The position numbers and the translations under genes are program-made. Below are positions 2,913-16,362 of a DNA stretch of 23,161 nt, one piece after another. Position 1 is the first letter of the stretch. Every line of letters starts with the position of its first letter. This DNA is from a virus (taxonomy: Duplodnaviria > Heunggongvirae > Uroviricota > Caudoviricetes), in the IMG/VR virus record IMGVR_UViG_2698536622_000004; one strand, given 5' to 3'. The notes beneath the pieces were generated by a model. That model saw nothing but the letters and a program-made list of their open reading frames with translations. It ran no database searches and was not told the origin of the DNA.

Positions 2913-3113
2913 ATGCTGACGAAAGAACCATCATTTGCATCGCTGCTGGTAAAACAAAGTCCGGCAATGCACTACGGTCACGGCTGGATCATGGGTGAGG
3001 ATGGTAAACGCTGGCATCCGTGCCGTTCACAAGATGAATTGCTGGCAGAACTATCAACGAAAAAACGGGGGAACCAATGGCTATTGAAGGCGCTGCGGCG
3101 ACTGTTCCATTAA
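2913..3113 (+). CDS. Hypothetical early protein, 66 aa (occupies the 186 fil position)
   Basis: ATG at 2913 with GAGGTG immediately upstream, 8 nt after the cII stop; the track's 2883 start is a GTG inside cII. No recognisable motif. Confidence 0.45.
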   Translation: MLTKEPSFASLLVKQSPAMHYGHGWIMGEDGKRWHPCRSQDELLAELSTKKRGNQWLLKALRRLFH

Positions 3114-3719: not shown

Positions 3720-3946
3720 TGGCTGATGCAATGGATCTCGTCCAGCAGCGAGTTGAAGAAGAACGCCAACGTCATATCCGTGCTGCCCGTGCCAAAACGC
3801 CGGGCGTGTCCCGCGTGCTTTGCGTTGAGTGTGAAGCGCCAATTCCGCCAGCACGCCGTCGTGCCATTCCGGGTGTGCAGCTTTGCATTACCTGTCAGGA
3901 AATCGCAGAGCTGAAAGGCAAACATTACAACGGAGGTGCTGTATGA
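3719..3946 (+). CDS. TraR/DksA-family C4 zinc-finger protein, 75 aa
   Basis: CVEC...(17 aa)...CITC four-cysteine zinc-finger signature. Start overlaps the upstream stop (TGATG) and the stop overlaps the downstream start (ATGA). Confidence 0.75.
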   Translation: MADAMDLVQQRVEEERQRHIRAARAKTPGVSRVLCVECEAPIPPARRRAIPGVQLCITCQEIAELKGKHYNGGAV

Positions 3947-4800
3947 GCACCATCCTGAAATGGGCGGGAAATAAAACCGCCATAATGTCCGAACTGAAAA
4001 AGCATCTTCCTGCTGGCCCGCGACTGGTTGAACCTTTCGCGGGTTCCTGTGCTGTGATGATGGAGACGGATTACCCCAGCTATCTTGTTGCGGATATTAA
4101 TCCTGATTTAATCAACCTCTATAAAAAGGTTGCTGCTGATTGTGAGGCGTTTATATCTCGTGCCAGAGCTTTATTTGAGGAAGCAAACAGGGAGGTGGCT
4201 TATTACAACATAAGGCAGGAGTTTAATTACTCCACTGAAATTACTGATTTCATGAAAGCGGTATATTTTCTGTATCTCAATCGTCATGGTTACCGTGGGT
4301 TATGTCGCTATAACAAGAGCGGGTATTTCAACATTCCCTACGGTAATTATAAAAATCCGTATTTCCCTGAAAAAGAAATTCGCGCATTTGCAGAGAAAGC
4401 CCAGCGAGCAACGTTTATCTGCGCCAGCTTTGATGAAACGCTGGCGATGCTGCAGGTGGGGGATGTGGTGTATTGCGATCCGCCTTATGACGGTACGTTT
4501 TCCGGTTATCACACTGACGGCTTCACTGAAGATGACCAGTATCACCTGGCATCCGTTCTTGAACATCGGTCATCAGAAGGACATCCCGTCATTGTTTCTA
4601 ACAGTGACACATCCCTGATCCGTTCGCTGTATCGCAATTTTACTCACCACTACATCAAGGCAAAACGCAGCATCGGTGTGGCAGCTGGTGATAGTAAATC
4701 TGCAACAGAAATCATTGCTGTTTCCGGGGCGCGCTGCTGGGTGGGATTTGATCCATCGCGTGGCGTAGATAGTTCTGCTGTGTACGAGGTGCGTGTATGA
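3943..4800 (+). CDS. dam: DNA N6-adenine methyltransferase, Dam (GATC) family, 285 aa
   Basis: AdoMet-binding motif [11 protein letters not shown] and catalytic DPPY; alignable by eye over most of its length with E. coli Dam (KWAG..K, FLYLNR.GY.GLCRYN, VYCDPPY). ATG at 3943 with GGAGGTG upstream; track start 3883 is upstream of this. Confidence 0.85.
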
Positions 4801-7211
4801 GTCATGACGATATGAGCAACTCTAGCGGCTTTAACGAGGCCGCTGCATCATTTTCATGGAACGGCCCGAAAAAGGCCATTAACCCTTATCTGGACCCGGC
4901 GGAAGTTGCGCCGGAGTCTGCACTTTCAAACCTGATCACTCTGTATGTTGCCGATAACGAGCAGGAACAACTGCGCCGCGAGGCACTGAGTGAGCAGGTC
5001 TGGGAGCGTTATTTCTTTAATGAATCCCGTGATCCTGTCCAGCGCGAAATGGAGCAGGATAAGCTCATTAGCCGGGCAAAGCTGGCGCATGAGCAGCAGC
5101 GTTTTAATCCAGACATGGTCATTCTGGCTGACGTCAACGCCCAGCCTTCCCATATCAGCAAGCCGCTGATGCAACGTATTGAATACTTCAGCAGCTTGGG
5201 CAGGCCAAAGGCTTATTCCCGCTATTTGCGTGAGACGATTAAGCCATGTCTGGAACGACTGGAGCATGTACGCGACAGTCAGCTATCCACTTCTTTTCGC
5301 TTTATGGCAAGCCATGAAGGGCTGGACGGCCTGCTGATCCTGCCTGAAATGAGTCAGGATCAGGTAAAACGCCTGTCCACCCTGGTAGCTGCGCATATGA
5401 GCATGTGCCTTGATGCCGCTTGTGGCGATTTATATGCCACCGATGACGTTAAGCCAGAAGAAATCCGCAAGACATGGGAAAAGGTGGCAGCGGAAACCCT
5501 GCGACTGGATGTTATCCCGCCTGCGTTTGAGCAACTCCGCCGGAAAAGAAACCGCCGTAAACCAGTGCCCTATGAACTCATTCCGGGCTCGCTGGCGCGT
5601 ATGCTGTGCGCCGACTGGTGGTATCGGAAATTGTGGAAGATGCGTTGCGAATGGCGGGAAGAGCAGTTGCGTGCTGTCTGCCTGGTCAGCAAAAAAGCAT
5701 CTCCCTATGTCAGCTATGAAGCTGTGATGCATAAACGTGAGCAGCGCCGTAAGTCGCTGGAGTTTTTCCGTTCTCATGAACTGGTGAACGAAGACGGAGA
5801 CGCGCTGGATATGGAAGATGTGGTAAACGCCAGCTGCAGCAACCCGGCGCATCGCCGCAATGAGATGATGGCCTGTGTTAAAGGTCTGGAGCTTATCGCG
5901 GAAATGCGCGGTGACTGCGCCGTTTTCTACACTATTACCTGTCCGTCACGTTTCCATTCCACGCTCAATAACGGCAGACCCAACCCGACCTGGCAAAACG
6001 CGACGGTAAGACAAAGCAGCGATTATCTGGTCGGTATGTTTGCTGCATTTCGTAAGGCGATGCACAAAGCCGGGTTGCGCTGGTATGGCGTGCGGGTGGC
6101 TGAGCCGCATCACGACGGCACAGTTCACTGGCACCTGTTGTGTTTCATGCGCAAAAAAGACCGCCGCGCCATTACTGCATTGTTGCGTAAGTTTGCTATC
6201 CGTGAAGACCGCGAGGAGCTGGGCAATAACACGGGGCCGCGCTTTAAGTCTGAGCTGATTAACCCGCGCAAAGGAACGCCGACAAGCTACATAGCGAAAT
6301 ACATCAGTAAGAACATTGACGGGCGTGGTCTGGCTGGCGAGATCAGCAAGGAAACGGGTAAATCTCTTCGTGATAACGCTGAATACGTGAATGCCTGGGC
6401 GTCTTTGCATCGTGTTCAGCAATTCCGCTTCTTTGGTATTCCGGGGCGTCAGGCTTACCGTGAACTGCGATTGCTGGCTGGTCAGGCGGCAAGGCAGCAG
6501 GGTGACAAAAAAGCAGGTGTGCCGGTACTGGATAACCCGCGCCTTGATGCCATTCTGGCTGCTGCTGATGCTGGTTGTTTTGCCACCTATATCATGAAGC
6601 AGGGAGGTGTACTGGTTCCCCGTAAATATCACCTCATCAGAACCGCTTATGAAATTAACGAAGAGCCGACCGCCTATGGCGATCACGGTATTCGTATTTA
6701 TGGCATCTGGTCACCCATTGCAGAGGGCAAGATCTGCACTCATGCAGTGAAGTGGAAAATGGTTCGTAAGGCCGTTGACGTTCAGGAGGCGGCAGCCGAC
6801 CAGGGCGCTTGCGCCCCTTGGACTCGTGGCAATAACTGTCCCCTTGCTGAAAATTTGAACCAACATGAGAAAGATGAATCAGCAGATGGGGATACCAGAA
6901 CGGACATTACCTGCATGGATGACAAGGAATTGCACGATTACCTGCACAGTATGAGCAAAAAAGAGCGCCGGGAACTGGCAGCAAGATTGCGCCTGGTTAA
7001 ACCGAAACGGCGTAAAGACTACAAACAGCGAATTACAGAGTATCAGCGTCAGCAGCTCGTCTATGAACTGAAGTCCAGAGGATTTGATGGCAGCGAGAAA
7101 GAGGTCGATTTGCTCCTTTGCGGTGGCAGTATTCCGTCAGGAGCAGGCCTGCGTATCTTCTATCGGAACCAGCGTTTGCAGGAAGATGATAAGTGGCGGA
7201 ACCTGTATTAA
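4797..7211 (+). CDS. A: Rolling-circle replication initiation endonuclease (P2 gpA family), 804 aa
   Basis: HUH-type metal-binding motif ([13 protein letters not shown]) and tyrosine-containing segment ([13 protein letters not shown]) typical of gpA-like relaxases. Last gene of the early operon; ATG overlaps the dam stop (ATGA). Confidence 0.9.
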
Positions 7212-7305
7212 TCACGCGGGTTAACAATTCGTGCTCTTAATAATACCAGGCATATCAGGCTGATGAACGTAAAAAAACGTTTTACATCAGTAAGATTATT
7301 ATATA

Positions 7306-7321
7306 CTGTAAATATAAACAG
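7306..7321. promoter_or_regulatory. LexA (SOS) box: CTGT-N8-ACAG within TACTGTAAATATAAACAGTG
   Basis: Matches the enterobacterial LexA consensus TACTGTATATATATACAGTA at the CTGT/ACAG arms with an AT-only spacer. Sits ~45 nt upstream of the small ORF at 7365 and overlaps candidate -10 hexamers (TATACT at 7302-7307). Confidence 0.6.
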
Positions 7322-7364
7322 TGGTTATATGTACAGTATTGCGTATGGTGTTATAGGAGGAAAG

Positions 7365-7553
7365 ATGCAGGACTATTTTTTGGAGTCTTTGAAGCTCCAG
7401 CGCATTGATTTTTTTCTTAAGCTTGTAGCGGCTAGTGAGTGTAGTGATGAAGAGAAGGGGCTAGCTCTGCAGTGGGTTTCTGAATTGACTGATGAGTTGA
7501 TGGCGAAAATTCGAAGCCATGAATACAGTAGGTCGATGGATGTAATCAGTTGA
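7365..7553 (+). CDS. Small acidic protein, 62 aa, downstream of a LexA box; candidate SOS-inducible antirepressor (186 Tum-like position) or other SOS cargo
   Basis: ATG at 7365 with AGGAGG 4 nt upstream. The longer track ORF starting at 7263 would contain the LexA box, so the shorter start is preferred. Followed by a terminator hairpin. Confidence 0.45.
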   Translation: MQDYFLESLKLQRIDFFLKLVAASECSDEEKGLALQWVSELTDELMAKIRSHEYSRSMDVIS

Positions 7554-7585
7554 GCTTGTTTCGTTAGGACTTGATAAGGGAACCG

Positions 7586-7607
7586 AAAAGGGGCATTAAG
7601 CCCCTTT
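7586..7607. terminator. Bidirectional intrinsic terminator-like hairpin (AAAAGGGGC-ATTAA-GCCCCTTT)
   Basis: GC-rich 5-bp core stem extended by A/T pairs, flanked by A-run and T-run. Sits between the stop of the plus-strand small ORF (7553) and the stop of the minus-strand lipoprotein gene (7621). Confidence 0.5.
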
Positions 7608-7620
7608 CTCATAAGTTGAT

Positions 7621-7920
7621 TTAGTTGTTACCCAAAGAGCCGGCCATGGCTGCATATTTAATTTCTTCGCTGGGTATTTCAGGATGTAGTTGAATTTGCC
7701 TGATGATATAGCCAGGAACTTCTTCACTCCACAGTTTCGCCGCGTCCTTACAGACCTTATACGCGAAGTCTCTATTCTCAAAGGCATAGGATTTTCCGTA
7801 TGCATATTGCTGACAGGCATGAACATAAGCTCCGAAGTCGCCGTCTTTATCTGGCAAAGCACATCCAGCTAAGGCTATGATGATTGCTACTAACGTAAAG
7901 GAGAAAGTTATACGTTTCAT
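7621..7920 (-). CDS. Small lipoprotein, 99 aa (lipobox LAGC)
   Basis: N-terminus MKRITFSFTLVAIIIALAGC is a typical lipoprotein signal peptide with lipobox cysteine. AT-rich codon usage unlike the phage core. Confidence 0.6.
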   Translation of the reverse strand: MKRITFSFTLVAIIIALAGCALPDKDGDFGAYVHACQQYAYGKSYAFENRDFAYKVCKDAAKLWSEEVPGYIIRQIQLHPEIPSEEIKYAAMAGSLGNN

Positions 7921-7976
7921 GGTCTCTTTCTAAGCGTTTAGCATTATTTAACTAAGGGGTATCTGCCGTGATTTGG

Positions 7977-8005
7977 TAGTCCCTGATATATATTCTCAGG
8001 GACTA
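7977..8005. repeat. Perfect 10-bp inverted repeat TAGTCCCTGA / TCAGGGACTA with 9-nt AT loop
   Basis: Read directly at 7977-7986 and 7996-8005; lies in the 108-nt gap between the two lipoprotein genes. No clear U-tract, so it may be an operator or RNA processing/attenuator structure rather than a terminator. Confidence 0.4.
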
Positions 8006-8028
8006 TGCTGAAGTAGCTTTAATTTTGA

Positions 8029-8835
8029 TTATTTAGAAAGGTACTTATCTCTAAGTTGATTCAGTCTGTCAGCATCGCGTTCTGAAAACTCGGCGTCACC
8101 ATAGATCGATTTCCCATCTGCGTCTTCAAGGCCAATGACTGTGACGGTAAATATAGCATCAGCCGGAACTTTAAGTTTTCCCCAATCAGAGTATCTATTA
8201 GGGGCTAATTTCCAGTTGGCTTTCTCACCTGGTTCCAGACCTCCAGAAATTTTATAGTTGAAGACGTCAGAGAACCAAGGGACGCTTCTTCCTGGGCTGG
8301 CAATAACTCCTTTGAAGAATACTCTGGCAACCGCTTTGTCTGTTCCGTTTTCAACGCTAATATCCAGAATTGGCTGATCATTGCCGTAATCCTCTTTCTG
8401 GAAATAAAAACGGGAACGTTCGACCTTGAAGGCTTTCATTTTTTCCGCAGCCTGTGTTGCAGAGGTTTGTTTGGCTTCCAGTTCTTTTATTTCTTGCAGA
8501 GCCTGTTCTTTCTCTCTCTTCTCACGCTCAAGGCGAATAGTTTGTGCGTAATTTATAACCTCATCACCAGTTTTACCTTCCAGCGCTGACTTAATTTTTG
8601 TTTCGTAGACGTCCCCAGAAGACGTTCCAGCCTGCATTAGCTCTCTCATGTTGATTTGGCTAAAGGCAACGACTTTAACTGCATCATCAAACTGAGCTTT
8701 TTTATCTGCAGGTAAGGACTCTCTTACTTTTTGAATGGACTCTTTCATCGACTGATCGCTTGATGCATCGATCTTCGGTTTGTCACAAGCAGTAAGCAGC
8801 AGAGCAAAAGCAATTACGCCAGTTAATTTCTTCAT
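8029..8835 (-). CDS. Lipoprotein, 268 aa (lipobox LLTAC), with a Lys/Glu-rich coiled-coil-like segment and a C-terminal domain of unknown function
   Basis: Start placed at the internal ATG (8833-8835) giving MKKLTGVIAFALLLTAC; the track start at 8907 adds 24 residues with no SD. Periplasmic-type composition. Same strand as the 99-aa lipoprotein gene downstream. Confidence 0.6.
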   Translation of the reverse strand: MKKLTGVIAFALLLTACDKPKIDASSDQSMKESIQKVRESLPADKKAQFDDAVKVVAFSQINMRELMQAGTSSGDVYETKIKSALEGKTGDEVINYAQTIRLEREKREKEQALQEIKELEAKQTSATQAAEKMKAFKVERSRFYFQKEDYGNDQPILDISVENGTDKAVARVFFKGVIASPGRSVPWFSDVFNYKISGGLEPGEKANWKLAPNRYSDWGKLKVPADAIFTVTVIGLEDADGKSIYGDAEFSERDADRLNQLRDKYLSK

Positions 8836-9357
8836 ATCCCTATCCCAATCGTAAAAAAACAAGGCTAATCCTAACAGGATTAGCGGGCATGACAAACTCA
8901 TAGCCATATAGGTGTGCTGTATAAATTAGCGGGATGAGAAAGCCTGCACAGACCCTCATGTTGAAACTTGATTTTAGCTCAAAAGAGCTGACACTAAATA
9001 ACTGCGCGGAATAATGCTCCACTTTCGGTTAGCCCTTGGCCCTTGCTGGGTAAGGCGTGGGGCCGTTTTCTTCGCCTGATCCTGCTGTATCTGGCCTACA
9101 GTATGTTGTCCTTACGCGACATGCCACATGTCAGTAAACGGCAGGTGTAGCAGTATTAGACGCAGCTATTTAGTGTGTATTAAGCTGGCTCATATTTATG
9201 ACTGGTTTCAAGGTTTGACCGATTTTCATGTCATGCATGTCTATGCTGCATGAGTTCGCATGATCGTTTGAGGATCGGTTTGGCTAAGACATGCCAGAAC
9301 TGGCGAGCTTTTGCTCATGTCATGCAGGTGCATGAAAACTACTACATAAAGCGGGCA

Positions 9358-9376
9358 GGCGTGGCGGGGATACGAG
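9358..9376. other. Candidate cos (cohesive-end/packaging) site: GGCGTGGCGGGGATACGAG
   Basis: The first 13 nt (GGCGTGGCGGGGA) match my recollection of the 19-nt cohesive ends of 186 (GGCGTGGCGGGGAAAGCAT) and P2 (GGCGAGGCGGGGAAAGCAC). Located in a 590-bp non-coding region between the A-side cargo and the portal gene, where cos lies in P2-like genomes. Confidence 0.4.
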
Positions 9377-9436
9377 CGCGCGCTGTGCTGTGTGGTATAG
9401 GCCTTAATTTAGTATGATTCAATAGTGTCGGGAGCT

Positions 9437-9465
9437 TTGCGCTGATCAGTCCTAAGTTATATGAT
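9437..9465 (+). promoter_or_regulatory. Candidate sigma70 promoter for the GHKL ATPase gene (-35 TTGCGC, 17-nt spacer, -10 TATGAT)
   Basis: Hexamers read directly; about 30 nt upstream of the ATG at 9495. Weak -35. Confidence 0.3.
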
Positions 9466-9494
9466 AAGAAAAATGCATAAAAAAGGTTCGGTTC

Positions 9495-10469
9495 ATGGGG
9501 TTAGGATTAAAAGACGCTATTGTGCATACCGCTGCGTTTCATCAAAAGGAAACTAATGAATTGCAATTGCCAAACAATCATTGGCATCCTGGTTTTATCA
9601 CTGTCTTAGCAGCTTACGTGAATCATCACAAAATTACCGAAGATAACTGTGTTTTGTCATGCCCTGGCTATATGCGAGCTATCAATTTACATGGTGCTTT
9701 ATGGGGAGAGGATCAGTATCAACAGGAACGTGTAAATGTTGGAAGAAATTACAGTTTGGTTACAGCATTAACCAATGTTGAAGCTGTTGACGTTGCCACT
9801 GGTAGTATTAACAGTTGTGTAAGGCAGTTAACATTCCCTGATCGTGATCCGAGAGATTGTCCCAAGGGACTTACAGATCTAACCCATGTTATAGGTGAGC
9901 TTCACGATAACGTTTGGTCGCATGGAAAATCAACGGGTTTTTCTTTTGCACAACGTTCGGCTGTACCCCACACTCAAAAAAAAGAGCACTATTTAGAATT
10001 TTCTTTGGCGGACTGTGGGTTAGGATTTCTCCGAGAATTGCGGCGAGCTGGTATACCCGGAATTGAGACTCACCAGGATGCGATCGCATGGTGTATTCAA
10101 GAGGGACATTCATCTAAGCATGCTGATTTGCAGGATGATTGGGCACAGCAGCTTCCCCAGGACTTTATTGGGGGTAGTGTGTTTGGCCACGGGGTTTCGG
10201 TCAAAGAAAAAGATAATAATCATCAAGGGCTTGGGTTGTATCACTTGATGAAATTGATAAAAACATATAATGGGGAATTGCAACTGGCTTCAGGAAATGT
10301 ATGCTTAGAAGCAATAGGTGATGAAGTGAGCTATACTGAATTACGTACTGAATGGCCGGGTGTAGCAATTTCTTGCCGTTTTAAGATTCATGAACTGGCA
10401 GTCGATAAAGATAGCGAAGAAAATGACCCTCAGCTTATGGAAATAATGCGGGCGTTAGGAGGAGAGTAA
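9495..10469 (+). CDS. Histidine-kinase-like (GHKL/Bergerat-fold) ATPase, 324 aa, with a ~130-aa N-terminal region of unknown function and no DHp/phospho-acceptor domain
   Basis: N-box-like ELHDNVWSH, D/G1-box-like DCGLGF and G2-box-like QGLGLYHL in the expected order. AT-rich. Stop TAA overlaps the next gene's ATG by 1 nt. Confidence 0.7.
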   Translation: MGLGLKDAIVHTAAFHQKETNELQLPNNHWHPGFITVLAAYVNHHKITEDNCVLSCPGYMRAINLHGALWGEDQYQQERVNVGRNYSLVTALTNVEAVDVATGSINSCVRQLTFPDRDPRDCPKGLTDLTHVIGELHDNVWSHGKSTGFSFAQRSAVPHTQKKEHYLEFSLADCGLGFLRELRRAGIPGIETHQDAIAWCIQEGHSSKHADLQDDWAQQLPQDFIGGSVFGHGVSVKEKDNNHQGLGLYHLMKLIKTYNGELQLASGNVCLEAIGDEVSYTELRTEWPGVAISCRFKIHELAVDKDSEENDPQLMEIMRALGGE

Positions 10470-10807
10470 TGAACAAAATCGCATACAAGTTACCCGAGGG
10501 TGACCTGGCTTCGCGCAATCAGGCTATCCCCCAACGACACAAGATTGAAGGGTTCATTAAAGAAGGGTATACCGTAGATTTAGATCTGAGCGGTGTTTAT
10601 TCAATTTCAGAATCATACTCTGATGAAATCTTTGGTGTTTTGGTAGTGAAATTCGGTGTAACCAAAGTTTTGAGTCAAGTTAAGGTTCGCAATGCACCCC
10701 CTTCAATTTTAAAAAGTATTGCAAAAGTGATCCAACGCCGTAGTAATGAAGTAGCATCAAAAAAGGTTCATTCCGTTGGATTTGATGGTTTATACGCCGT
10801 TTGTTAA
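10469..10807 (+). CDS. Small STAS-like protein, 112 aa (DUF4325-like; anti-sigma-factor-antagonist-like fold predicted)
   Basis: Core segment YTVDLDLSGVYSISESYSDEIFGVLVVKFG resembles the DUF4325/STAS-like pattern (hydrophobic-LDF-x-GV...S-x-DE-x-FG). AGGAGGAG SD lies inside the end of the upstream gene, indicating translational coupling. Confidence 0.55.
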   Translation: MNKIAYKLPEGDLASRNQAIPQRHKIEGFIKEGYTVDLDLSGVYSISESYSDEIFGVLVVKFGVTKVLSQVKVRNAPPSILKSIAKVIQRRSNEVASKKVHSVGFDGLYAVC

Positions 10808-10824
10808 TATATGGTTAGTTAGAT

Positions 10825-10850
10825 AAAAGGCGCTGAGATTAGCGCCTTTT
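10825..10850. terminator. Bidirectional intrinsic terminator (AAAAGGCGCT-GAGATT-AGCGCCTTTT)
   Basis: Hairpin with flanking A and T runs, lying between the STAS-like gene stop (10807) and the portal gene stop (10854), which converge on it. Confidence 0.6.
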
Positions 10851-10853
10851 CTT

Positions 10854-11891
10854 TTATTCCTGAACACCTAAAACATAGTCATCAAAACGTATTACTTCTG
10901 CACCCACCCATTCGTTTAGTTCATGTAGTCGCTTCTGTAGTGGCATCAATTCATTGCGAACAAATACAAGACTAGCCTTCTCCACATCCCCAAAACCCCC
11001 AACATTATTTGGCATAATCCCCATCATCTGTGGCGGAACGCGATGTGCTGCCATCATGTCATCGCGGCTGACATTTTTGATATTCAGAAACTCATCCTTC
11101 GCCGCAACTTCTGACAAAGGGATGATCTGAAGGCCGTCCTTTTTGCCGTTAGGCGAGTACATAAACAGGTTGCGGAAGTTGCCTGGACCTTTGGCGCTTT
11201 TCATCGCGTTGCGGAGATTGTTCACATCCTCCTGATTCTGCGCGGCGTCGGTCATGTACATGATGAAGCCTGCATGGCTGCCGTTGATGTAATACTTACG
11301 GCGGAACAGCGTGGCGGACTCATTGAGCAGGGCTGACGGAATGGCAGAAAGATAGCCGGGCAGGCCGTAGATCTCCTGGTTAATGTCCGGTTCCATCAGA
11401 TGAAAGATGCTGCCTTTCGTGAACTGATACGGCTGTGTTGTCATACCGTATTGCACAAACCAGTAGGTATCCAGGTCTAACCCGCGTCGGGTGTATTTTG
11501 CCAGGGCCGGTTCAAGGGCGATAACTTCACCGAAGCGGTTCGTGCGTTTCTCCAGGTAGGCGTTACCAAATACCAGATAGTCCTGCACAAAACGTGAAAA
11601 AGCCTGCTGGCTGAGCAGCGGGTGAGGGATGTAGGTACTGGTCAGAATGTTGCACTTTACTGCAATCGGGGAACTGTGATGCACAGCAGCGCGGAAGGTG
11701 CGCGCCAGTCCGTCAAAGCTGACAGGAGGCTCATACCAGCGATCTGTCTGTACGCATTCCACATAGTCCAGCAGTTCGCGGCGGTCAAGTACTGGAATGG
11801 GATCACCGAAGCTGAATGCTTCGGCTGTAGTCTGGCTTTTAAGCTGGCTCTGTTTCGTCGCCGCAGCGCGGTTCTTCTTACTCTTTCCCAT
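10854..11891 (-). CDS. Q: Capsid portal protein (P2 gpQ family), 345 aa
   Basis: Length and position next to the terminase ATPase gene. ATG start overlaps the P stop (TGATG); the track start at 11894 is TTG. Confidence 0.9.
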   Translation of the reverse strand: MGKSKKNRAAATKQSQLKSQTTAEAFSFGDPIPVLDRRELLDYVECVQTDRWYEPPVSFDGLARTFRAAVHHSSPIAVKCNILTSTYIPHPLLSQQAFSRFVQDYLVFGNAYLEKRTNRFGEVIALEPALAKYTRRGLDLDTYWFVQYGMTTQPYQFTKGSIFHLMEPDINQEIYGLPGYLSAIPSALLNESATLFRRKYYINGSHAGFIMYMTDAAQNQEDVNNLRNAMKSAKGPGNFRNLFMYSPNGKKDGLQIIPLSEVAAKDEFLNIKNVSRDDMMAAHRVPPQMMGIMPNNVGGFGDVEKASLVFVRNELMPLQKRLHELNEWVGAEVIRFDDYVLGVQE

Positions 11892-13657
11892 CAAAAAATC
11901 TCCACAATATTGCTGGTATTGGCGGACTCGCCCTGCAGCGGTTCGTTAAAGAGTGCGTGCATTGTTGCCCAGGCCAGATCGGCATGGCTGGCTTCTTCGC
12001 TGCGGCTGGCTTCATAGGTCGGGCGGTTGCCGCTGGCGGTGGTGGCGCGACGGATTGCCATGAATGACTGCGCAATGTCGGTGTGTCCGGCGTCAAATTC
12101 TAGGCGGCGGTGACTGATAATGTCGTAGGCCTTGAGTACCAGGGCGTTTTTAACGTTGGGGTTGTAGACAAACTCCCGGACGGCAGGAAAGAATGCTTTC
12201 ACGTTCTCGTAAACCCCGTGGCCGACGCCAGTTGAGTCGATGCCGATGTATGTCACGTTGTACTGTTCGGTCAGTTTTTTGATGGCGTCAGCCTGGGCGC
12301 GGAAGTCCATCCCGCGCCACTGGTGACGCTCAAGAATGCGGAACTTACCGCCCGGCACGGCTGGCGGTGCCACCACTACGCATCCGGCGCTGTCGCCGTT
12401 TTGCGTACCTTTTGCCGGGTCATAACCGATCCACACTTCGCGCCAGCCAAAGGGGCGCAGAGCCAGTGCATGAAAGTCGGTCCAGACTTCCCAGCTGTCC
12501 ACCATGCACGCCTGCAGCTCGCTGAGCGGGAACACGGACGCGAGATCGTCCACGAACTCGCACATCAGCAGGTTCTGGTATTCGTCCGGGCTGTACTCCA
12601 TGCGCAACTGGTCAAGGTCGAACAGGTTACAGCCGCCGCGCACCGCATCTTCCACGGTGACTATCTGGCGGTATTGCCCGTCTGCGCACAGCAGGCCGGG
12701 GGCCAGATTGCTGTGGGACAGGTCGATGTCCACCTTATCGGCTTTGTTGCGCCCACGGTTGAACAGCGCACCGGACCAGAACGGATAAGCACTGTGTGTC
12801 AGGCTGGATGGCGTGGAAAAATAGGTTTGTCGCCATTTTTTGTGAATAGCCATACCGGAAGCCACTTTGCGCAGCTCCTGGAATTTTGGTATCCAGAAAT
12901 ATTCATCCAGATACAGGTTGCCGTGATAACTCTGGGCAGTGCGGGCATTGGTGCCGAGGAAGTAAAGCGTGGCCCCGTTGGGAAGCACCATCGGATCGCC
13001 TTTCAGCTCCACCTCCACTTCTTTGGCGAAGTCGATGATGTACTGTTTAAAGACGTGGGCCTGTGCCTTACTGGCGGAAAGGAAAATCTGGTTACGTCCG
13101 GTAAGCAGGGCGTCAATCAGGGCTTCACGGGCAAAGTAAAAGGTCGCGCCGATCTGGCGTGACTTCAGCAGGTTGCGGATGCGGTTGGTTTTTCCGGCTT
13201 CCCACCAGTGGCGCTGGTAGTTGAACATGGAGGAATGGAAAATTTCTTCCAGCTTCTCAATCTGTTCATCGGTGAAAACGTTCTTTTCCGGCTGACGGCG
13301 CGGGCTTTTGTTGCGGTTGGCGACGTTAGGGTTTAAGTCGGCTTCGTTGCCGCCATTGTTAAACTTGCCGATCCGCGCGTGGCGTTCCGACTGGCGCGCC
13401 AGCAGGTCAATCTCTTTGAAATCTTTCCCTTCTTTGTGCTCCTTCATGATGAGCTGGCAGTAGCGTGCGGCGGTGGTGAGCTGCATCTGATCCAGCGGCC
13501 CATAATCACCCCACTTGTCGCGTTTTTTCCAGCTGTGAACGGTTGCAACTTTCTCGCCCAGCATTTCAGCAATGCGGGCTACGCGGTATCCCTGAAAGTA
13601 CAGCAGCATGGCCTGCCGACGGGGATCGAGATCTGCGGGTGTCAGTGTGGTGTTCAT
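11891..13657 (-). CDS. P: Terminase large (ATPase) subunit (P2 gpP family), 588 aa
   Basis: Large ORF divergent from the O-N-M-L capsid operon, as in P2. Coordinates taken from the ORF track; my own base count near the start codon was off by one against the track and I could not resolve it by eye. Confidence 0.85.
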   Translation of the reverse strand: MNTTLTPADLDPRRQAMLLYFQGYRVARIAEMLGEKVATVHSWKKRDKWGDYGPLDQMQLTTAARYCQLIMKEHKEGKDFKEIDLLARQSERHARIGKFNNGGNEADLNPNVANRNKSPRRQPEKNVFTDEQIEKLEEIFHSSMFNYQRHWWEAGKTNRIRNLLKSRQIGATFYFAREALIDALLTGRNQIFLSASKAQAHVFKQYIIDFAKEVEVELKGDPMVLPNGATLYFLGTNARTAQSYHGNLYLDEYFWIPKFQELRKVASGMAIHKKWRQTYFSTPSSLTHSAYPFWSGALFNRGRNKADKVDIDLSHSNLAPGLLCADGQYRQIVTVEDAVRGGCNLFDLDQLRMEYSPDEYQNLLMCEFVDDLASVFPLSELQACMVDSWEVWTDFHALALRPFGWREVWIGYDPAKGTQNGDSAGCVVVAPPAVPGGKFRILERHQWRGMDFRAQADAIKKLTEQYNVTYIGIDSTGVGHGVYENVKAFFPAVREFVYNPNVKNALVLKAYDIISHRRLEFDAGHTDIAQSFMAIRRATTASGNRPTYEASRSEEASHADLAWATMHALFNEPLQGESANTSNIVEIF

Positions 13658-15711: not shown

Positions 15712-16362
15712 ATGAGCCTGAGTCCCGCACGGCAGCATCGCCTGCGCGTTCAGGCTGAACAGGCCGCCCGCGAGGGCGGCAGTGTTCGCCACGCATCGGG
15801 CTATGACCTGATGCTGCTGCAACTGGCGGAAGACCGCCGCCGTCTCAAGGGCGTTCAGTCCACGGTCAAAAAAGCGGAAATCAAGGTGGAGCTGCTGCCG
15901 AAGTACGCCGCCTGGGCAGAGGGTGTCCTGGCTGCCGGAGGCGCTCAACAGGATGACGTGCTGATGTACGTGATGCTGTGGCGCATTGATGCCGGAGATT
16001 ATGCCGGAGCGCTGGAGATCGGGCGTCATGCCCTGCGTCATGGCTGGGTGATGCCGCTGGGTAACCGCAACGTGCAGACCGTGCTGGCAGAGGAAATGGC
16101 AGACGCCGCGCAGAGCGCAATGCTTGCCACCACCGGCTTTGATGCCGATCTGTTGCTGCAGACGCTGGAGCTGACAGACGGTCTGGATATGCCGGACCAG
16201 TCACGGGCGCGTCTGCATAAAGCGATTGGCGCGGTCCTGAGTGAAAGCAATCCGGCGTCTGCCCTTAATCATCTCAACCATGCGTTACAGCTCGATCCCC
16301 GCTGTGGCGTGAAAAAAGACAAACAGCAGCTGGAGCGCAGACTGCGCAATGACAGCCGCTGA
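15712..16362 (+). CDS. M: Terminase small (DNA-recognition/endonuclease) subunit (P2 gpM family), 216 aa
   Basis: Position after N and gpM-like segments (ELLPKYAAWAEGVL, GAQQDDVLMYVMLWRID, AGALEIGRHAL, QLDPRCGVKK). Confidence 0.85.
   Translation: MSLSPARQHRLRVQAEQAAREGGSVRHASGYDLMLLQLAEDRRRLKGVQSTVKKAEIKVELLPKYAAWAEGVLAAGGAQQDDVLMYVMLWRIDAGDYAGALEIGRHALRHGWVMPLGNRNVQTVLAEEMADAAQSAMLATTGFDADLLLQTLELTDGLDMPDQSRARLHKAIGAVLSESNPASALNHLNHALQLDPRCGVKKDKQQLERRLRNDSR

Follow-up and report, generated by a model that had tools for sequence, protein, structure and literature searches.

A probable cos packaging signal of the Fels-2/SEN8 type at the junction of two cargo modules in a P2-like prophage

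The cohesive ends of phages P2 and 186 have been mapped experimentally, and a 55-bp core has been described as common to the cohesive-end sites (cos) of P2 and P4 (Ziermann and Calendar 1990, as presented in the papers that cite it). For Salmonella phage SEN8 (KT630647.2), a 19-mer has been published as the cos. Together with Fels-2, SopEPhi, RE-2010, Escherichia phage Cartapus and many prophages of Klebsiella (Felsduovirus/Elveevirus), SEN8 provides the closest known relatives of the site that is the subject of this report, which lies in a 23,161-nt stretch of viral DNA (IMG/VR record IMGVR_UViG_2698536622_000004; the whole stretch is called the window below, and positions are counted from its first letter). 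The window carries a P2-like (Peduoviridae) prophage whose host is E. coli or a close relative, and the block at 9233-9383 is, with high confidence from sequence comparison, its cos packaging signal, of the Fels-2/SEN8/Cartapus type. It is a known kind of site and a known sequence variant, of use for annotation rather than novel.

The block lies in a non-coding gap in which an original prediction, made from the letters of the DNA, had noticed a cos-like 13-mer and several direct and inverted repeats; all of the strings quoted there are found in place, to within one base. The gap is real but longer than the 590 bp first given. The gene on its left probably starts at the ATG at 8835 and not at 8907, as indicated by a lipoprotein-type N-terminus and by RefSeq, which in identical E. 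coli prophages calls a gene of 807 nt, so that the gap comprises 659 bp (8836-9494).

The predicted cohesive end and its left arm

Within 8700-9700, the cos block is the only part that is conserved in Peduoviridae phage records. Megablast and blastn matches to these records are confined to 9234-9385, with 86-91% identity over the 150-bp block, and come from Fels-2, SopEPhi, RE-2010, SEN8, Cartapus, a Yersinia Elveevirus and many Klebsiella prophages. The 13-mer GGCGTGGCGGGGA (9358-9370), which had been taken for the start of a P2/186-type cohesive end, is unique in the window, with approximately 0.0007 exact chance matches expected on both strands, and it opens a 19-nt sequence, GGCGTGGCGGGGATACGAG, that is identical to the annotated cos of both SEN8 and Cartapus. 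In the SEN8 record, positions 1-19 are annotated as 'putative cos site' and the last base is the equivalent of window 9357; in Cartapus, the same sequence bears the feature 'putative cos site, homologous to the cos of P2'. At the start of the records of P2 and 186 stand annotated cohesive ends (GGCGAGGCGGGGAAAGCAC and GGCGTGGCGGGGAAAGCAT, respectively) that line up with 9358-9376; the right ends of both records correspond in the alignment to window 9329-9357. The 19-mer agrees with that of 186 at 15 of 19 positions, including all of the first 13, and with that of P2 at 14 of 19, and it has the form of a 19-nt cohesive end beginning GGCG(A/T)GGCGGGGA. An alignment to the cos regions of P2, 186 and P4 bears out the assignment, since both flanks align and the 55-bp core matches at 41, 43 and 42 positions, respectively (P2 and P4 match one another at 52); the figure for SEN8 is 53, and every near-invariant column of the family is present in the window.

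Conservation across the family was assessed in P2- and P4-like sequences collected from IMG/VR with the degenerate pattern GGCG-N-GGCGGGGA-N7-GCGCGC, which returned 120 loci and 117 unique cos regions. The 19-mer of the window is the commonest variant of the nicking site (cosN) in this sample, being present in 35 of the 120 loci. The left flank is outside the search pattern, yet it is strongly conserved over the 117 unique sequences (TGCATKAAAA, AAGCGGGCR, the repeats R1-R4 and an inverted repeat). Five YGCAT(K) repeats, the GCCAG..CTGGC inverted repeat and AAGCGGGCA all fall within approximately 125 bp to the left of the cut. The parts of the signal are as follows.

9233-9383: the whole of the probable conserved packaging signal (151 bp), made up of the left arm, cosN and a short flank on the right; limits taken from the conservation profile of the 117 sequences
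9234-9239, + strand: R1, a TGCATG repeat, candidate recognition element for the terminase small subunit; YGCAT at the aligned position in 96 of 117
9247-9252, + strand: R2, a TGCATG repeat; GCAT in 106 of 117 aligned sequences
9257-9262, + strand: R3, a CGCATG repeat; GCAT in 110 of 117
9262-9276: a pair of GATC (Dam) sites, 9262-9265 and 9273-9276, with a spacing of 11 bp, from a count of GATC-N7-GATC
9292-9312, + strand: inverted repeat TGCCAG-AA-CTGGCG followed by TTTT, weakened in the window; terminator-like in its score
9322-9326, + strand: R4, ATGCA, the TGCAT motif inverted; found in 81 of 117
9329-9339, + strand: R5, TGCATGAAAAC, the left-arm element with the strongest conservation; GCAT in 115 of 117, information content near maximal
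9329-9383: equivalent, by alignment, of the 55-bp P2/P4 cos core (TGCATKAAAAC ... AAGCGGGCR, cosN and YGCGCGC)
9349-9357, + strand: AAGCGGGCA box abutting the predicted top-strand nick; nearly invariant in the 117 sequences and outside the search pattern
9358-9376, + strand: cosN, the predicted 19-nt 5' cohesive end, identical to positions 1-19 of the SEN8 record
9377-9383, + strand: CGCGCGC box, the sole conserved sequence to the right of cosN; also in P2, 186, P4 and SEN8

The extended left arm, with its YGCAT motifs and central inverted repeat, is thus present in the window as it is in the family, where each of R1-R5 is found in 81-115 of the 117 sequences; the architecture in the P4 satellites is the same. 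R1 is recognizable in P4, 186 and SEN8 and degenerate in P2, and the spacer between R3 and the inverted repeat varies. The window departs from the consensus of its subtype at only five strongly conserved columns, three of them in one arm of the hairpin, and R1-R5, AAGCGGGCA, cosN and CGCGCGC are all intact. The YGCAT repeats may well be the binding sites of the terminase small subunit.

With P2, 186 and P4, the window shares three YGCAT repeats at approximately -125 to -95, ATGCA and TGCATKAAAAC at -36 to -19, AAGCGGGCR, a 19-nt cosN starting GGCG(A/T)GGCGGGGA, and YGCGCGC. The central inverted repeat is shared with 186 and P4 but not with P2, and positions 14-19 of cosN read TACGAG, in contrast to AAGCAC (P2 and P4) and AAGCAT (186). 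Apart from the identical 19-mer and the near-identical core, the likeness to the SEN8/Fels-2 group extends to the placement of cos between genes A and Q and to the presence of inserted cargo in the interval from cos to Q. The differences are that the cargo on both sides of the site is another one in the window, that one arm of the central hairpin is degraded, and that the window has an additional, dispersed element 60 bp to the left.

The cos of phage lambda (cosQ-cosN-cosB) likewise has an arm with repeats, recognized by the small subunit, beside a nicking site that gives 5' cohesive ends; its overhang is 12 nt as opposed to 19 nt here. Unlike in lambda, the recognition arm in the window is on the side that would become the right end of the mature genome; P2 terminase, for its part, takes monomeric circles as its substrate.

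The inner GCCAG/CTGGC of the central inverted repeat (window 9293-9304) is conserved as sequence across the family, whereas its outer pairs covary. The stem is longer in relatives than in the window, and 45 of the 117 sequences (38%) have a T-run after it. It may double as a terminator in some lineages; if it does terminate a rightward operon in relatives, transcription in the window prophage would be expected to run on through cos. The hairpin is probably not required for the function of cos, since it is absent from P2.

Several of the repeats in the gap had been put forward as possible terminase recognition elements. This holds to the extent that the 12-bp direct repeat and a pair of strings beginning GATCG belong to cos; the other repeats are outside it or at the level of chance. 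The direct repeat, TCATGTCATGCA (9226-9237 and 9315-9326), can be extended to 20 nt at 85% identity in a repeat search and is not random, because by our own arithmetic only approximately 0.013 repeated 12-mers are expected in about 660 bp. It overlaps the family-wide motifs R1 (TGCAT) and R4 (ATGCA), but its outer bases are specific to the lineage. For a repeated 9-mer in the same length, the expectation is approximately 0.8, and that for a 6-3-6 palindrome is of similar order, so that the 9-bp repeat and the palindrome reported from the gap are chance-level occurrences. The 9-bp string GACATGCCA, which the same repeat search finds again at 9288-9296, was accordingly discarded as a functional repeat: besides its chance frequency, the copy at 9288 arises incidentally from three lineage-specific substitutions in the conserved arm of the hairpin. 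Conservation of the repeats in related prophages, by which functional and incidental strings can be told apart, is thus divided, the motifs R1-R5 being family-wide and GACATGCCA and the strings of the dispersed element not.

Terminase, Dam sites and competing readings

The position of cos, between gene A and the portal gene Q with intact terminase genes downstream, is that expected of the SEN8/Fels-2 group. The genes concerned are listed here.

3883-4800: Dam-type methylase gene, just upstream of gene A
4797-7211: gene A, a gpA-type replication endonuclease of 804 amino acids
10854-11894, - strand: portal gene Q (PHROGs portal, E = 1e-175)
11891-13657, - strand: terminase large-subunit gene P, encoding a gpP homologue (PHROGs terminase large subunit, E = 1e-160)
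15712-16362, + strand: terminase small-subunit gene M, encoding a gpM homologue, which presumably reads the left arm of cos (PHROGs terminase small subunit, E = 1.3e-88)

The scaffold and major capsid genes are also to the right of cos and have very strong PHROG matches. After excision and replication of the window prophage, a terminase composed of the gpM and gpP homologues would recognize the left arm through R1-R3 (-124 to -96), R4-R5 (-36 to -19) and the AAGCGGGCA box, and would nick the strands 19 nt apart, with predicted cuts between 9357 and 9358 on the top strand and between 9376 and 9377 on the bottom strand. Virion DNA would then carry 19-nt 5' cohesive ends of sequence GGCGTGGCGGGGATACGAG. 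Its left end would start at 9358 and run into the right-hand cargo, then Q, P and so on, and its right end would stop at 9376, preceded by gene A and the left-hand cargo.

Cos type and terminase segregate together. Loci that have TACGAG or TACGAT at positions 14-19 of cosN encode gpP and gpM proteins at least 84% and at least 81% identical, respectively, to those of the window. With all other cos types, including the P2 and 186 types, the corresponding values are only approximately 63% and 49%. This fits a cognate pair of site and enzyme, although shared descent alone would give the same pattern.

The second pair of strings that had drawn attention, GATCGTTTG (9262-9270) and GATCGGTTTGG (9273-9283), contains the two GATC sites and does lie in cos, but is conserved in this cos subtype only. 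GATC-N7-GATC occurs in 34 of the 38 cos regions of the TACGA type compared with four of the 79 of other types, the bases between the sites vary, and P2, 186 and P4 have no counterpart. In this subtype, the two sites are spaced by one helical turn. A Dam homologue is encoded upstream of gene A in 13 of the 16 adequately covered loci of the subtype, as it is in the window, although the adequately covered loci of other cos types are too few for a contrast. Cleavage at the packaging site (pac) of phage P1 depends on Dam methylation of hexamers that contain GATC. The window resembles that system in having conserved GATC sites in a packaging signal together with a phage-encoded Dam-type methylase (3883-4800), but differs from it in having only two GATC sites. 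By that analogy one could speculate that the two sites make packaging of the Fels-2 type sensitive to Dam methylation, any dependence on methylation being itself a speculative notion. The sites may simply be part of a GATCC-N5-GGATC inverted repeat that is bound by some protein.

Some observations weigh against the assignment of 9233-9383 as cos, or at least limit it. The cos of SEN8 was assigned by annotation, and no mapping of virion ends was found in the searchable literature for any phage with a 19-mer of the TACGAG type; the virion ends proposed for the window prophage are those predicted by homology. Positions 14-19 of cosN differ from the mapped ends of P2 and 186 at four of six positions. 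In the IMG/VR set, the conservation of GGCG-N-GGCGGGGA and GCGCGC was imposed by the search pattern. Finally, the central hairpin is weakened, with deviations of its left arm from the subtype consensus at 9289, 9291 and 9292.

These last deviations, together with a private G-to-A change in the opposite arm at 9306, are what might be expected of a relic of cos in a defective prophage, which would still be recognizable but would no longer be cut or packaged. Such decay is unlikely here: all of the family-wide motifs (R1-R5, AAGCGGGCA, cosN and CGCGCGC) are intact, the genes for terminase, portal, scaffold and capsid have strong profile matches and open reading frames of full length, and P2 is fully functional without the hairpin, so that this copy of cos would presumably still be active. 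The same hairpin with its T-run (9292-9312) resembles a terminator, the stem of the relatives is longer, with covarying outer pairs and a T-run in 38%, and it may terminate an upstream rightward operon besides lying in cos. It could therefore be argued that the block encodes a small RNA, or a cis-regulatory RNA such as a terminator or leader of the flanking operons, in place of a packaging site. The possibility of a small RNA had indeed been raised, but it received no support from three covariance-model scans against Rfam 15, which gave no match in 8700-9700 with an E-value of up to 1, and none in the whole window that reached the gathering score; 8975-9195 yielded sub-threshold hits only, the best of them naRNA4 (14.8 bits, gathering score 59.5). 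What is conserved is, moreover, a set of DNA motifs that reaches the P4 satellites, where the flanking genes are unrelated, and the block coincides exactly with the genome termini in the P2, 186 and SEN8 records. We regard an RNA in place of the packaging site as very improbable.

We give as little credence to the proposal that the repeats are operators for a regulator of the divergent cargo operons. The region does lie between divergent cargo genes and does contain several short repeats and two GATC sites. The conserved repeats, however, stay constant while the cargo on both sides changes completely among prophages, and they recur in P2, 186 and P4 beside unrelated genes; the repeats that are not conserved either occur no more often than expected by chance or form part of the dispersed element. 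A protein gene inside cos was also considered. The gap contains two small open reading frames, 8840-9022 (- strand) and 9250-9417 (+ strand), and the second, of 55 amino acids, was rejected, as it has no Pfam match and its 3' part is in variable, non-conserved sequence.

Sequences to the left of the signal

Two further segments occupy the gap between the left-hand cargo gene and cos.

8836-8993, - strand: predicted upstream leader/promoter region of the DUF6694 lipoprotein gene, with promoter-like and terminator-like minus-strand sites from a motif scan
8994-9173 (180 bp), + strand: dispersed imperfect palindromic element of 172-187 bp, not part of cos, with sharp-ended copies in unrelated flanks

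The first contains a direct repeat, ATTAGCGGG, and a 9-bp inverted repeat, as found by the repeat search. Directly upstream of the ribosome-binding site of the DUF6694 lipoprotein gene, and overlapping a promoter-like site, there is a perfect 9-bp hairpin, GCTAATCCT/AGGATTAGC (8864-8884, within 8864-8893), followed by a minus-strand T-run; it could be an attenuator, a terminator or an operator.

The second accounts for two strings that had been associated with cos. The supposed weaker cos look-alike, GGCGTGGGGCC (9054-9064), is inside this unrelated element and is not conserved among its copies, and was thus rejected as a second cos. The palindrome GACATG-CCA-CATGTC (GACATGCCACATGTC, 9118-9132) is likewise part of the element. 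Only one of 120 other cos loci carries the element, which is therefore not a component of cos.

The arms of the element pair over 40 nt in the repeat search, and it folds as RNA better than shuffled sequences, with z-scores of -3.0 for one strand and -3.8 for the other. It ends in terminal repeats, CTAAATAGCTGCGC/GCGCAGCTATTTAG, which are 14 bp long in the consensus. Copies occur in an E. coli RHS locus, another chromosomal island, P1-like phage-plasmids, pSGI4 and Shigella phage SfII, as well as in a lambdoid prophage remnant, at no fewer than five sites in Erwinia tracheiphila, and in Pantoea and Trabulsiella. With terminal inverted repeats and sharp-ended copies in at least 12 distinct contexts of unrelated flanks in five genera, it has the features of a miniature inverted-repeat transposable element or an ERIC-like repeat. 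Its ends show no consistent target-site duplication, no clean empty site was found (in the P1-like plasmids it sits inside a larger variable cassette), and no parent insertion sequence (IS) was found, no dedicated test having been made for one.

Other identities were considered for the element and rejected. In the contexts examined, the annotation of the neighbourhood includes neither a reverse transcriptase nor an IS110 recombinase, as would be sought for a retron msr/msd or an IS110 bridge RNA. TnpB, whose guide RNA was another candidate, is near two copies, at inconsistent distance and orientation and in one case as an independent insertion. In common with ERIC/RU-1 and YPAL/RU-2, the element is an imperfect long palindrome of approximately 170 bp that is intergenic in Enterobacterales and has sharp ends and unrelated flanks. 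YPAL is described as being without terminal inverted repeats and as abundant in Yersinia. The element, in contrast, has the terminal repeats noted above, and a pattern search located no copy in any Yersinia genome; it thus does not fit YPAL/RU-2 as published, the comparison being one of descriptions only.

In the closing stem, several + strand columns with G-U alternate with G-C or A-U, and there are 68 G-U cells compared with 12 A-C cells, a count that is biased in that the structure was predicted on the + strand. This strand-biased wobble pairing suggests that the element acts as RNA or single-stranded DNA, for instance in cassette exchange or in the stabilization or termination of transcripts. 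The element might accordingly be more than a passive selfish repeat, namely a previously undescribed structured element at cargo-cassette junctions of P2-like prophages, P1-like phage-plasmids, SfII, pSGI4 and enterobacterial chromosomes. Readings of this kind, this one and the Dam sensitivity of Fels-2-type packaging, are a long shot.

Some properties of individual copies may be added. The window copy has a 7-bp tandem duplication at 9037-9050 (GCCCTTG GCCCTTG); in its other copies, the same insertion measures 172 nt, lacking the duplication, or 187 nt, presumably with three units, and the variation in unit number suggests slippage. In plasmid pSLK172-1, a copy is split by an IS21-family insertion (253-361 and 3001-3069); its halves overlap by 6 nt, consistent with the target duplication of that insertion. 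In Erwinia tracheiphila, two copies in the same orientation (656-809 and 7230-7402) bracket a 6.4-kb cluster of sugar-catabolism genes (RpiB-like, SDR, GH88, MFS transporter and zinc alcohol dehydrogenase).

Cargo modules and exchange at cos

The remaining features of the window that bear on cos are an integrase-sized reading frame and the cargo on either side.

1-1131, - strand: integrase-sized open reading frame in the map of the P2-like prophage
8029-8835, - strand: left-hand cargo gene, encoding a lipoprotein of the DUF6694 family (Pfam PF20404, E = 3.5e-22), in concordance with the RefSeq annotation in E. coli S56
9341-9383: interval that holds the crossover between two parental prophage lineages, from a four-way alignment
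9384-9494, + strand: 5' region of the right-hand cargo operon, variable among prophages; 100% identical to the STEC1587 type and unrelated to the S56 type and Fels-2
9495-10807, + strand: right-hand cargo, a two-gene operon between cos and the portal gene, from Pfam, PADLOC and PHROGs scans and the RefSeq annotation in STEC1587

The first gene of the right-hand pair encodes a 324-amino acid protein of unknown function (PHROG 3364, no Pfam match), and the second encodes a 112-amino acid STAS-like DUF4325 protein that PADLOC matches weakly to part of DrmA. The pair is present in 25 of 5426 E. coli genomes and is a candidate defence or accessory module in a known hotspot: it has already been published that the region adjacent to cos is a hotspot for cargo in P2-like phages and P4 satellites, and it has been suggested that cos promotes exchange there.

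The mosaic structure of the window agrees with this. Among otherwise near-identical prophages, the flanking cargo differs and homology breaks at 9383/9384. Prophages of the E. coli S56 type match the window at 99.9% over 7200-9383 and diverge completely beyond, whereas those of the STEC1587 type match at 100% over 9380-10860 and are different to the left of cos. The window is of the S56 type up to 9383, including a T at 9340, and of the STEC1587 type from 9341 rightwards, and no complete E. coli genome of the collection has both cargo modules together. The left- and right-hand cargo thus stem from two E. coli prophage lineages, which meet at a crossover inside the cos core (within 9341-9383); the conserved core would then serve as a patch of homology for the exchange of cargo modules in addition to its part in packaging.

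To a specialist, the findings on cos itself will be unsurprising. Recognition of the site nevertheless fixes the predicted ends of the virion genome and splits the gap between A and Q into two cargo slots, a view that helps in the annotation of prophage cargo and of candidate defence genes. The map of five YGCAT repeats offers targets for dissecting how the small terminase of the P2 type reads DNA, and may aid the design of cosmids for P2/P4-based delivery. The window is a clear case of cargo exchange at cos, the switch between lineages falling within 43 bp that contain the predicted cut site, and the mosaic is in keeping with the view, put forward in the literature, of cos as the pivot of the P2/P4 defence hotspot.

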